Assembly (NCBI RefSeq): GCF_041886205.1 | Contig: NZ_CP169029.1 | Strand: one strand, 5' to 3' | Length of the DNA: 64,000 bases | Origin: Escherichia coli | Lineage (GTDB): Bacteria > Pseudomonadota > Gammaproteobacteria > Enterobacterales > Enterobacteriaceae | Part shown: positions 5,699 through 23,368 of the stretch, one piece after another | How positions within the stretch are numbered: the first letter of the stretch is position 1 | How the letters are laid out: each line of letters starts with the position of its first letter | The notes under the pieces: model-generated | Database searches by the model: none | What the model saw: the letters and a program-made list of their open reading frames with translations, nothing else | What the model was told of the DNA's origin: nothing | Translations under genes and position numbers: made by a program

Positions 5699-6004
5699 TC
5701 ACTCCATCTTTTTATAAACCTCTATCAATTCTGTCACAAGTTCACGGCAAAGCATACCTGTCATAAGGTGATCTTGGGCGTGAACCATCACCAGAGTGAT
5801 TTGCAGTTTACCTACCCCCTCATCCAGACCAATTAGCCGAGTCTGCACCTCGTGTGCCTGCCTGAAGGCATCGTCAGAAACCTTTAAAGAGGCTTCCGCT
5901 TCAGCAAAGCTCCCCGCTTTGGCGAACCTGAGCGCCTCCATGGCACAACTGCGACCTTCGCCAGCGGCGATAATCAGCGACATCACATCATTTTCATAGC
6001 TCAT
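5699..6004 (-). CDS. PTS EIIA component, lactose/cellobiose family
   Basis: 101-aa ORF with size and helical pattern of the lactose/cellobiose IIA family; conserved His region (VMVHAQDHLM). Confidence 0.85.
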   Translation of the reverse strand: MSYENDVMSLIIAAGEGRSCAMEALRFAKAGSFAEAEASLKVSDDAFRQAHEVQTRLIGLDEGVGKLQITLVMVHAQDHLMTGMLCRELVTELIEVYKKME

Positions 6005-14077: not shown

Positions 14078-14350
14078 GAGTTCCCCGCGCCAGCGGGGAT
14101 AAACCGTTCGCTGGCAATCCACTCAGGAATTTCGGGAAGAGTTCCCCGCGCCAGCGGGGATAAACCGGGCAGTACCGACATGGACGGTCACCACGAGTTG
14201 AGTTCCCCGCGCCAGCGGGGATAAACCGTGTATAGCGCCAAAATTGACGAAAGACATGTTGAGTTCCCCGCGCCAGCGGGGATAAACCGGTTGTAGCTGA
14301 CAATGTAAATCATGGATTTACGAGTTCCCCGTGCCAGCGGGGATAACCAT
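14078..14350 (+). CRISPR. Type I-E CRISPR array: 5 repeats (last degenerate), 4 spacers of 32 bp
   Basis: 29-bp repeat GAGTTCCCCGCGCCAGCGGGGATAAACCG at 14078, 14139, 14200, 14261; degenerate terminal repeat gagttccccgtgccagcggggataaccat at 14322..14350. Spacers at 14107..14138, 14168..14199, 14229..14260, 14290..14321. Confidence 0.97.
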
Positions 14351-20399: not shown

Positions 20400-20635
20400 C
20401 ACCACGCGGGGGGTAAAATCCCGCGTACTGAATTGTGATGGTTTGGTCTCCTGCACCCTTTTTAATTTATATTGTTTATGTGAATATTATGCCTGTGTTT
20501 ATTATTTATATGTTTTATAGATGAAAACCATTGAATTATTCACAATGTAAATATTTTAATGAACGATATATATCACAGATAATTTTTAATATATGCGTAA
20601 ATATCCTTTAAGTTTTACGAAAGGATAAAAACATT
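20400..20635 (+). promoter_or_regulatory. AT-rich cas3 upstream/promoter region
   Basis: Strongly AT-rich ~230-bp tract immediately upstream of the cas3 start; in K-12 the equivalent region holds the H-NS-repressed cas3 promoter (from memory). No -10/-35 assigned. Confidence 0.45.
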
Positions 20636-22063
20636 GTGACTTTCTTTGATTTCTGGGGAAAAAACCGACGCGGCGAGAAAGAGGGCGGCGACGACTATCA
20701 TCTACTTTGCTGGCATTCGCTGGATGTAGCCGCGATGGGCTATTTAATGGTTAAAAGCAATTGCTTCGGGCTGGCTGACTATTTTCGTCAACTAGGTTTC
20801 GATGATACGGAGCAGGCAGCACAATTTTTCGCCTGGCTATTGTGCTGGCACGATATTGGAAAATTTGCCCGCTCTTTTCAGCAACTTTATCTGCATCCAC
20901 AACTCAAGGTTCCGGAAGGCGCAAGAAAAAATAACGAAAAGATCTCTCATTCAACGCTGGGTTACTGGTTGTGGAATCATTATTTAATTGAATGTGACGA
21001 GTTGCTTCCTTCCTCTTCACTCTCTCCCCGCAAACTTAAACGGGTAATAGCGATGTGGATGCCCATGAGCACGGGGCATCATGGTCGCCCACCTGACCGT
21101 ATTGATGAACTGGATAATTTTCTGCCTGAAGACAAAGTTGCCGCGCGAGATTTTCTCCTTGAAATCAAGTCACTGTTCCCGCTCATAGAGATCCCCACAT
21201 TCTGGGATGATGACGAGGACGTTGAACTTATAAAACAACTTTCCTGGTATATCTCTGCAACCGTCGTACTTGCAGACTGGACAGGATCGTCAACGAGATT
21301 TTTTCCACGCGTCGCACACCCAATGGATATTAAAGATTACTGGCAGAAGGCTTTAGTGCAGGCTCAAAACGCCTTAACCGTCTTTCCTCCAAAAGCAGAA
21401 ACCGCACCTTTCACCGGAATTAATACACTGTTTCCTTTTATTGAGAATCCGACACCGTTACAGCAAAAGGTGCTGGAACTGGATATCAGCCGGCCCGGGC
21501 CACAGTTATTTATTCTGGAGGATGTAACCGGCGCAGGTAAAACAGAAGCGGCGCTTATCCTGGCGCACAGGTTGATAGCTGCGGGGAAAGCTCAGGGGCT
21601 GTTTTTTGGTCTGCCAACAATGGCAACGGCCAATGCCATGTACGATCGGCTGGTCAAAACCTGGCTTGCTTTCTATTCGCCAGAATCCCGCCCCAGCCTG
21701 GTGCTGGCACACAGTGCCCGCACATTAATGGACCGCTTTAATGACTCACTCTGGTCCGGTGATTTAGTCGGGTCAGAAGAACCGGATGAACAAACGTTCA
21801 GTCAGGGATGTGCAGCCTGGTTTGCCGACAGTAACAAGAAGGCTTTACTGGCTGAAATTGGCGTCGGCACGCTGGATCAGGCGATGATGGCAGTGATGCC
21901 GTTTAAACATAATAATCTGCGGCTTCTGGGGTTGAGTAACAAAATCCTGCTGGCTGATGAGATCCACGCCTGTGACGCTTACATGTCGTGCATTCTTGAA
22001 GGGCTGATCGAGCGGCAGGCGCGTGGCGGAAACAGCGTTATTTTGCTTTCTGCTACGTTATCT
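20636..22063 (+). pseudogene. cas3: Truncated cas3 (type I-E): HD nuclease plus first half of helicase core; 3' half deleted
   Basis: ORF begins at GTG 20636; HD motifs (LLCWHSLDVAA, CWHDIGKF), Walker A (VTGAGKTEAA) and DExH box (LLADEIHA) present; coding sequence ends ...NSVILLSATLS and runs directly into a CRISPR repeat at 22064. Intact Cas3 is ~890 aa; only ~476 codons remain. Confidence 0.85.
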
Positions 22064-22214
22064 GTGTTCCCCGCGCCAGCGGGGATAAACCGCCATTCTT
22101 GTTGTCGTTCATCAAGCGCAGGGGGTGTTCCCCGCGCCAGCGGGGATAAACCGGGTAAATAACACAGCGTTTGAAACAGGCAAAAGTGTTCCCCGCGCCA
22201 GCGGGGATAAACCG
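22064..22214 (+). CRISPR. Residual type I-E CRISPR array (iap-proximal): 3 repeats, 2 spacers, no leader
   Basis: Repeat GTGTTCCCCGCGCCAGCGGGGATAAACCG at 22064, 22125, 22186; 32-bp spacers at 22093..22124 and 22154..22185. Differs from the queE-adjacent array repeat at position 2 (T vs A). Confidence 0.95.
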
Positions 22215-22330
22215 GCGCAATACGGTGCGGTTTTCCCGGAAGTAAACCGGGCGCACTGGATGCGATGATGGGTATGACTTAGAATTCCCCGCCCCTGCGG
22301 TAGAACTCCCAGCTCCCATTTTCAAACTCC

Positions 22331-23368
22331 TCAAGACGCCTTCGCCAGCTCCTTCACCAGCGGTAGCATTATCCGCATAACATCACGGCAGCGACGTTCT
22401 ATTCTTCCAGGAAGTGCCTTATCAATATGTTGTTGATTATCCAGTCTTACGTCATGCCAGCTATTTCCCGCCGGGAAGGCAGGTGTTTTTGCGCGTTGCT
22501 GATAACCATCCTTATTCCCAAGATTCCAGTTAGTCGCTTCCACCGAAAGTACAGCAATGCCCGCTTTGTCGAATATTTCTGCGTCATTACAACACCCAGT
22601 GCCTTTCGGATAATTTTTATTCAAACCCGGATTGGTCGTTGCGGCTATTCCGTGACTGCGCGCAATTGCCAGCGCCCTGTCGCGCGTTAATTTCCTTACT
22701 GCTTCAGGGGTTTTTACACCGCTGTTGAAATACAATTTATCGCCAACAATTAAGTTATCGAGATCAATCACCAGCAGCGTATTTTTCTTTTCGGTGTCAC
22801 TCATCCGCTTGAGTAAATTCTCAGCGCCTAATTTCCCTTCCTCTTCGCCGCTGGTCGCCACAAATCGAATACCATACTCGGTAGGCGTATTTTTCAGGCG
22901 TTCTGCCAGTTCCAGCATGACACCTAAACCTGCGGCGTTATCATCCATTCCTTGTAACGTCAGCCCGCCGAGATTGGCATCGGCGTCAGCATCGCTCAGC
23001 GGGGCGTAAGTATCCAGATGCGCCATAATGATGATCTGCTGCGGCGCTTTGCCTTCATGAGCGGCAATCACCGTACTTCCTGTCACGTTATGCCAGTTCT
23101 TGCGATTATCGCGGGCGGTATAAATATACCGACTATTAAATGTCCGAATATCACTGCGATAACCCATTTGCTGAAACTGTTGGCGAATATAATCGGCAGA
23201 TAACATTTCTGCAGGAGTTCCGGTCATGCGTCCCGGAAAGAAAGTAGCAATATGTCGTGCCTGAGTATTAGCAAAATCGCCAGGTTTAGGTAACGAGGCG
23301 TGTACGGGGAGAATAAAGCATACGCCGAGCGCCAGGGCAGCGGTACGGTGGCGCAATGCGGAAAACAT
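22331..23368 (-). CDS. iap: Alkaline phosphatase isozyme conversion aminopeptidase (M28 family)
   Basis: 345-aa ORF MFSALRHRTAALALGVCFILPVHA... with signal peptide and M28-type metal-binding region (IIIMAHLDT...DDNAAG...SGEEEG). Confidence 0.93.
   Translation of the reverse strand: MFSALRHRTAALALGVCFILPVHASLPKPGDFANTQARHIATFFPGRMTGTPAEMLSADYIRQQFQQMGYRSDIRTFNSRYIYTARDNRKNWHNVTGSTVIAAHEGKAPQQIIIMAHLDTYAPLSDADADANLGGLTLQGMDDNAAGLGVMLELAERLKNTPTEYGIRFVATSGEEEGKLGAENLLKRMSDTEKKNTLLVIDLDNLIVGDKLYFNSGVKTPEAVRKLTRDRALAIARSHGIAATTNPGLNKNYPKGTGCCNDAEIFDKAGIAVLSVEATNWNLGNKDGYQQRAKTPAFPAGNSWHDVRLDNQQHIDKALPGRIERRCRDVMRIMLPLVKELAKAS

Follow-up and report, generated by a model that had tools for sequence, protein, structure and literature searches.

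Does a decayed CRISPR repeat stand between a residual CRISPR array and the gene iap, and if it does, why is it set 67 nt rather than one 32-nt spacer away from the last good repeat? The question arises from a 64,000-nt stretch of Escherichia coli DNA (NZ_CP169029.1), which we call the window and whose numbering is used throughout. The array concerned belongs to the E. coli CRISPR-I locus, which was reportedly first sighted by Ishino et al. in 1987. A reading of the letters alone, below called the sequence-only reading, had proposed that a 29-mer in front of iap could be a repeat at the array's old, iap-proximal end, decayed and shortened by an internal deletion.

On the plus strand the locus opens with the 5′ 1470 nt of cas3 (E1 variant; 20593–22063), a pseudogene that is cut after ...TTATCT and fused to the first repeat, as established by blastn against the intact cas3 of strain HD12481 and by the annotation of relatives. 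It is followed on the same strand by the residual CRISPR-I (CRISPR2.1) array (22064–22214), which consists of three perfect 29-nt type I-E repeats (GTGTTCCCCGCGCCAGCGGGGATAAACCG), starting at 22064, 22125 and 22186 with a period of 61 nt, and two spacers of 32 nt each (22093–22124 and 22154–22185). Between the third repeat and the terminal spacer lie 35 nt (22215–22249, GCGCAATACGGTGCGGTTTTCCCGGAAGTAAACCG). They comprise a truncated spacer of 28 nt (22215–22242, plus strand, GCGCAATACGGTGCGGTTTTCCCGGAAG), which occurs only in scar-bearing genomes and always with the same junction, and the heptamer TAAACCG (22243–22249, plus strand), the final 7 nt of a penultimate repeat otherwise lost to the deletion, which align with the 3′-end where other strains have that repeat in full. 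The conserved terminal, and thus oldest, spacer comes next (22250–22281, plus strand, 32 nt, GGCGCACTGGATGCGATGATGGGTATGACTTA) and carries two substitutions relative to the common form. The candidate repeat (22282–22310, plus strand) and a 20-nt trailer (22311–22330, plus strand) then lead to the stop codon of iap, the gene for the alkaline phosphatase isozyme conversion aminopeptidase, which is encoded on the minus strand (22331–23368). Two mechanically called open reading frames pass through the repeats, one of 93 aa on the minus strand (22053–22334) and one of 508 aa that begins in cas3 and runs on into the array (20636–22162, plus strand); both are artefacts of the cas3-repeat fusion and not genes. 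The window holds a second type I-E array (CRISPR-II) with a leader at 14078–14350, with four GAGTTCCCCGCGCCAGCGGGGATAAACCG repeats and a last repeat (GAGTTCCCCGTGCCAGCGGGGATAACCAT, 14322–14350) that is degenerate more mildly (24/29).

The candidate 29-mer, GAATTCCCCGCCCCTGCGGTAGAACTCCC, occupies 22282–22310 and starts 67 nt past the end of the last perfect repeat (22214); re-read in the window, the coordinates, letters and spacing that the sequence-only reading had given are all right. Its figure of about 19 matches in 29 also holds, in that 19/29 positions agree with the GAG-type consensus, the type present in K-12 and in the window's second array, and 18/29 ungapped positions agree with the window's own consensus GTGTTCCCCGCGCCAGCGGGGATAAACCG. 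The gapped local alignment to the repeat consensus that it had proposed as a check returns as its best result a 16-nt core, TTCCCCGCCCCTGCGG, which matches at 14/16 positions and spans the palindrome of the repeat. The decay is biased toward the 3′-end, with 15/19 matches in positions 1–19 vs. 3/10 in positions 20–29. In a consensus scan of both strands of the 64-kb window, unrelated sites reach 20/29 once (at 5949) and 18/29 three times, and approximately 4e-5 of the window positions attain 18/29. The match count by itself is not beyond chance in a window of this size, so that position and orthology, rather than similarity alone, carry the call. A rate of this order is significant only when the position has been fixed beforehand, and here it is fixed by the repeat remnant TAAACCG, whose end lies exactly 32 nt before the start of the candidate.

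The evidence from orthology comes from a megablast search with 22186–22420 as the query against 5426 complete E. coli genomes. In the majority of array-bearing genomes the alignment begins at query position 58 (window 22243); in B2 strains without an array, UTI89 among them, it begins only at query position 135 (approximately 22320), inside or just before iap. In UTI89 (phylogroup B2, without array) homology resumes at approximately 22317–22320. We read the orthologous loci of K-12 MG1655, HD12481, WY517-2, O157:H7 Z892, KSC64 and EC9952 and aligned them with MAFFT. All six run from a full penultimate repeat through the same 32-nt spacer, the same degenerate 29-mer and the same trailer into iap, and in all six full arrays the 29-mer falls exactly into the 61-nt register of the repeats. 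The 29-mer of the window, 32 nt past TAAACCG, does not share the register of the three intact repeats. The terminal spacer has the common form GGCGCACTGGATGCGATGATGGATATCACTT(A/G) across strains. The 29-mer reads GAATTCCCCGCCCCTGCGGTAGAACTCC in KSC64 and EC9952, with one base different in O157 (GAACACC), and GAGTTCCCCCGCC(T/C)CTGCGGTAGAACTCC in K-12, HD12481 and WY517-2. A 69-nt query composed of the spacer, the degenerate repeat and the first trailer bases matches 4240 of the 5426 complete genomes. Each genome has a single match, which is invariably chromosomal, and in no case does a PGAP CRISPR feature cover it. Outside E. coli, an exact-match scan of 100,044 species genomes with a 22-mer of the terminal spacer gave no match in any other species, the E. 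coli representative being the only one found.

Cas-positive relatives carry the leader and cas2 at one end of the array and the degenerate repeat, beside iap, at the other, which places this repeat in the leader-distal position. Aligned at the array-iap junction with K-12 and O157, the 29-mer is found one 32-nt spacer after a full repeat and adjoining iap, orthologous to the terminal degenerate repeat of these and other strains, as expected for a decayed repeat at the old, trailer end. Of the 116 bp between the last perfect repeat and iap, the iap-proximal 88 (22243–22330) do occur beside iap in full-array genomes, where they align to the end of a repeat, a 32-nt spacer, the degenerate repeat in perfect 61-nt register and 20 nt of trailer, an outcome that favors a repeat over plain trailer sequence. 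Drawing on the repeat match, orthology, the hairpin and the literature, we conclude with a probability of about 95% that 22282–22310 represents the terminal repeat, in degenerate form, of the E. coli type I-E CRISPR-I (CRISPR2.1) array and that, together with 22250–22281, it forms the ancestral tandem beside iap.

The unusual spacing is explained one unit further upstream. The 67-nt gap is the sum of the truncated spacer (28 nt), TAAACCG (7 nt) and the conserved terminal spacer (32 nt). A spacer, a repeat and the terminal spacer should measure 32 + 29 + 32 = 93 nt; 67 nt are observed, and therefore 26 nt are missing, namely about 4 nt from the spacer and 22 nt from the start of the penultimate repeat. 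The alignment shows the deletion in all but its exact size, which would be approximately 26 nt, or 26 + 61n if whole units were lost too. As it is out of register, the deletion did not arise by repeat-repeat recombination, and we suggest that a single event not mediated by repeats took the end of the spacer together with the start of the penultimate repeat. The sequence-only reading is supported, with one correction to the place of the deletion, which it had put inside the terminal repeat; the deletion sits in the preceding unit, where TAAACCG is left at 22243–22249.

An intact form of the truncated spacer was found neither by a megablast search with 22203–22252 against the 5426 complete E. 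coli genomes, which gave 11 matches, all with the same scar, nor in metagenome contigs, among which an exact 23-mer scan returned one contig, identical to the window. As no ancestor with the intact spacer was found, the deletion may measure 26 nt or 26 + 61n and may or may not have involved microhomology at its junction; with a single deletion, the hypothetical intact 32-nt spacer would read GCGCAATACGGTGCGGTTTTCCCGGAAGnnnn. A search for a protospacer of the truncated spacer gave no match in phages. The best plasmid candidate (24/28 on an IncI2 plasmid, E = 3) has CTG where an AAG PAM is expected, and we regard it as a chance match.

MAFFT itself laid out 22215–22249 in another way, with a 15-nt spacer stump followed by a second decayed repeat (GTTTTCC / CGGAAGTAAACCG), which would be the penultimate repeat after a 9-nt internal deletion and four substitutions. 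In this layout GTTTTCC+CGGAAGTAAACCG matches GTGTTCC+CGGGGATAAACCG at 16/20 positions. We nevertheless consider it improbable, as it costs two deletions and four substitutions where one deletion suffices, and as the 28 nt before TAAACCG, in an anchored alignment to the repeat prefix, do no better than 6–18% of 66 real E. coli spacers and 15–43% of shuffles. We favor the single deletion that left a shortened spacer joined to TAAACCG.

The degenerate repeat differs from a working one in its fold. The canonical repeat has a 7-bp stem and folds with −15.2 kcal/mol; of this stem the terminal repeat of the window has only CCGC/GCGG (4 bp) left, with a fold of −6.4 kcal/mol and the 3′ tail UAGAACUCC. 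It thus lacks the arrangement of a functional type I-E repeat, the substrate of Cas6e, in which a 7-bp GC-rich stem and a tetraloop are followed by AUAAACCG. The K-12 terminal repeat folds with −14.1 kcal/mol (z = −5.6) into an extended hairpin, GAGUUC/GAACUC plus CCGC/GCGG. The outer stem of this hairpin is not conserved, with an A·C mismatch in the window variant and one further mismatch in the O157 variant. At the DNA level, the K-12 repeat (L001 1651–1679, minus strand of that locus) reads as an extended palindrome that is nearly perfect, with (G)GAGTTC...GAACTC(C) flanking CCGC/GCGG, and in which the "degenerate" 3′-end is the reverse complement of the repeat's own 5′-end, and this hints at a possible quasi-palindrome-templated mutation.

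Given the strength of the K-12 hairpin and its position 20 nt beyond the iap stop codon, one could suppose that the 29-mer is primarily a transcription terminator or an RNA 3′-end element, serving iap on the minus strand or the pre-crRNA on the plus strand, and that its likeness to a repeat is secondary. We judge this to be very unlikely, as no terminator-like sites occur on either strand in 21900–22500, the hairpin has no U-tract after it when read on the iap strand, and the outer stem is imperfect in both the window and the O157 variants. A comparison with Rfam gave sub-threshold chance matches only (Chlorobi-1 with 18.8 bits vs. a gathering score of 50, and snoZ242). Finally, the notion that 22282–22310 is ordinary non-repeat trailer sequence that matches the repeat at 18 positions by chance, which could appeal to the four unrelated sites of equal or better score in the window and to the fact that PGAP never annotates the segment as CRISPR, is hardly credible and appears effectively refuted by register and by co-occurrence with arrays: the 29-mer starts exactly 32 nt past a full repeat in every array-bearing genome examined, its matches cluster in the 14/16 core over the repeat's palindrome, it is absent along with the array in UTI89, the sole B2 strain examined in detail, other array-less strains align only from query position 135 on, and the literature, in the part of Almendros et al. 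(2014, PMC3903273) that concerns this tandem, treats the iap-proximal 29-mer as a degenerated repeat.

The scar identifies a small group of genomes. The 35-nt sequence at 22215–22249 is identical in 11 of the 5426 complete genomes and in one metagenome contig. Nine of these scar genomes were read, and in all of them and in the window the 35-nt scar, the terminal spacer, the terminal repeat and the cas3-repeat junction are identical. Their internal arrays, with 3, 5 or 6 repeats, vary in steps of whole units, and one spacer is tandemly duplicated in LHM10-1 and CP52E. Loss and duplication of whole units thus go on in this lineage by repeat-repeat recombination without Cas proteins. In blastn, homology to the cas3 of HD12481 stops at window 22063 (L010 4025), nt 1470 of 2700 and just past the codons of the SAT helicase motif, and at 22063/22064 cas3 abuts the repeat directly with nothing in between. 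The junction has no IS element and no visible microhomology, the intact cas3 going on with CAACAG and the window with GTGTTC. A deletion separate from that in the array joined mid-cas3 to the repeat, and with it went the remainder of cas3, the Cascade genes, cas1, cas2 and the leader. For relatives that have the same cas3-repeat junction and trailer, the only annotated cas component is an incomplete, frameshifted Cas3 pseudogene. The locus has no Cas6e, Cascade, Cas1 or Cas2 and lacks the intact cas3 and the adjacent AT-rich leader of a functional locus. From this observed state of the locus we infer the loss of function, and the whole residual CRISPR-I array is an inert fossil that is neither processed nor extended. 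The combination of the scar with the cas3-repeat fusion provides a compact and rare marker (11/5426 complete genomes) for one cas-less lineage.

Some spacers in and around this lineage deserve mention in their own right. The first spacer of the residual array (22093–22124, CCATTCTTGTTGTCGTTCATCAAGCGCAGGGG) recurs with 100% identity, as a mid-array spacer, in the CRISPR-II (queE/ygcF-ygcE) array of approximately 27 other complete E. coli genomes, of which copies were read at L019 2501–2532 and L020 2501–2532; either independent acquisition or exchange between arrays could account for the sharing. Relatives of the window's lineage keep extra spacers that the window has lost (L004 2897–2929 and 2959–2991; arrays of L016 and L017). 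One spacer of the relatives, CCAGAAAAGACATACATTATTTCAGCCTGATGC, matches virB3/virB4 genes of E. coli plasmids of approximately 31 kb at 33/33 positions, and another, TAACGGCGGCATTTTTCCGCCAGCTCCGGTGC, matches a prophage tail-fibre gene at 29/29.

In type I-E systems each new spacer is taken up at the leader end, where the first repeat is duplicated, and the last repeat contributes, with its 5′ part, the 3′ hairpin handle of the final crRNA. Under this established biology, the last repeat would never be renewed. Its 3′ part would correspond to the 5′ handle of a nonexistent crRNA, and for this reason could be free to drift, which agrees with the concentration of mismatches in positions 20–29 (3/10 matches vs. 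15/19 in positions 1–19). Once diverged, the repeat would no longer recombine with canonical repeats, and because of this the tandem would be expected to persist while the internal units turn over. Alternatively, the tandem of spacer and degenerate repeat could be kept by selection and not by inertia, as a recombination-proof anchor or as a structured 3′-end of the pre-crRNA, for which the strong extended hairpin of the K-12 variant could be cited; we regard such selection as improbable. The anchor idea is a proposal of Almendros et al. (2014, PMC3903273), in which the tandem would block complete loss of the array and let a cas/leader/CRISPR module be re-inserted later. Since the cas genes disappeared from the window's lineage, internal units have been lost or duplicated while the tandem and the off-register scar stayed fixed; the fixed tandem is compatible with an anchor and equally with a simple lack of homology.

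A degenerate terminal repeat beside iap is an already known and ordinary feature: the E. coli tandem at this site is described in Almendros et al. (2014, PMC3903273), where Diez-Villasenor et al. (2010) are cited for it. As a marker of where the E. coli CRISPR-I array has its ancient end, the tandem is of slight importance beyond correct annotation; automatic CRISPR annotation overlooks it, as PGAP features end at the last canonical repeat. The tandem of the window is like the known terminal tandem of CRISPR-I (CRISPR2.1) in locus, orientation and neighbor (iap), and in its 32-nt spacer, which is the same but for two substitutions. The 29-mer of the window equals the form of O157, KSC64 and EC9952 except for a T/A difference in O157, and differs from the K-12 form by two substitutions and a 1-nt indel. 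Unlike the known tandem, that of the window's lineage follows a penultimate repeat cut down to TAAACCG, is out of register with the three remaining repeats, and has a terminal spacer whose two substitutions are specific to the lineage. For E. coli CRISPR-I loci that lack cas genes or are partly deleted, Almendros et al. (2014, PMC3903273) distinguish arrangements A-I plus minor variants. The window resembles these in its layout of cysH, hok/sok, cas remnant, residual repeats, tandem and iap and in keeping part of the array despite the loss of cas, but it differs in that cas3 nt 1470 directly abuts a repeat and the junction contains no IS element. Degeneracy of the leader-distal repeat, chiefly at its 3′-end, is a general rule for CRISPR arrays according to Touchon and Rocha (2010, PMC2886076), and the terminal repeat of the window fits this rule by the distribution of its matches, as does, in milder form, the last repeat of CRISPR-II.
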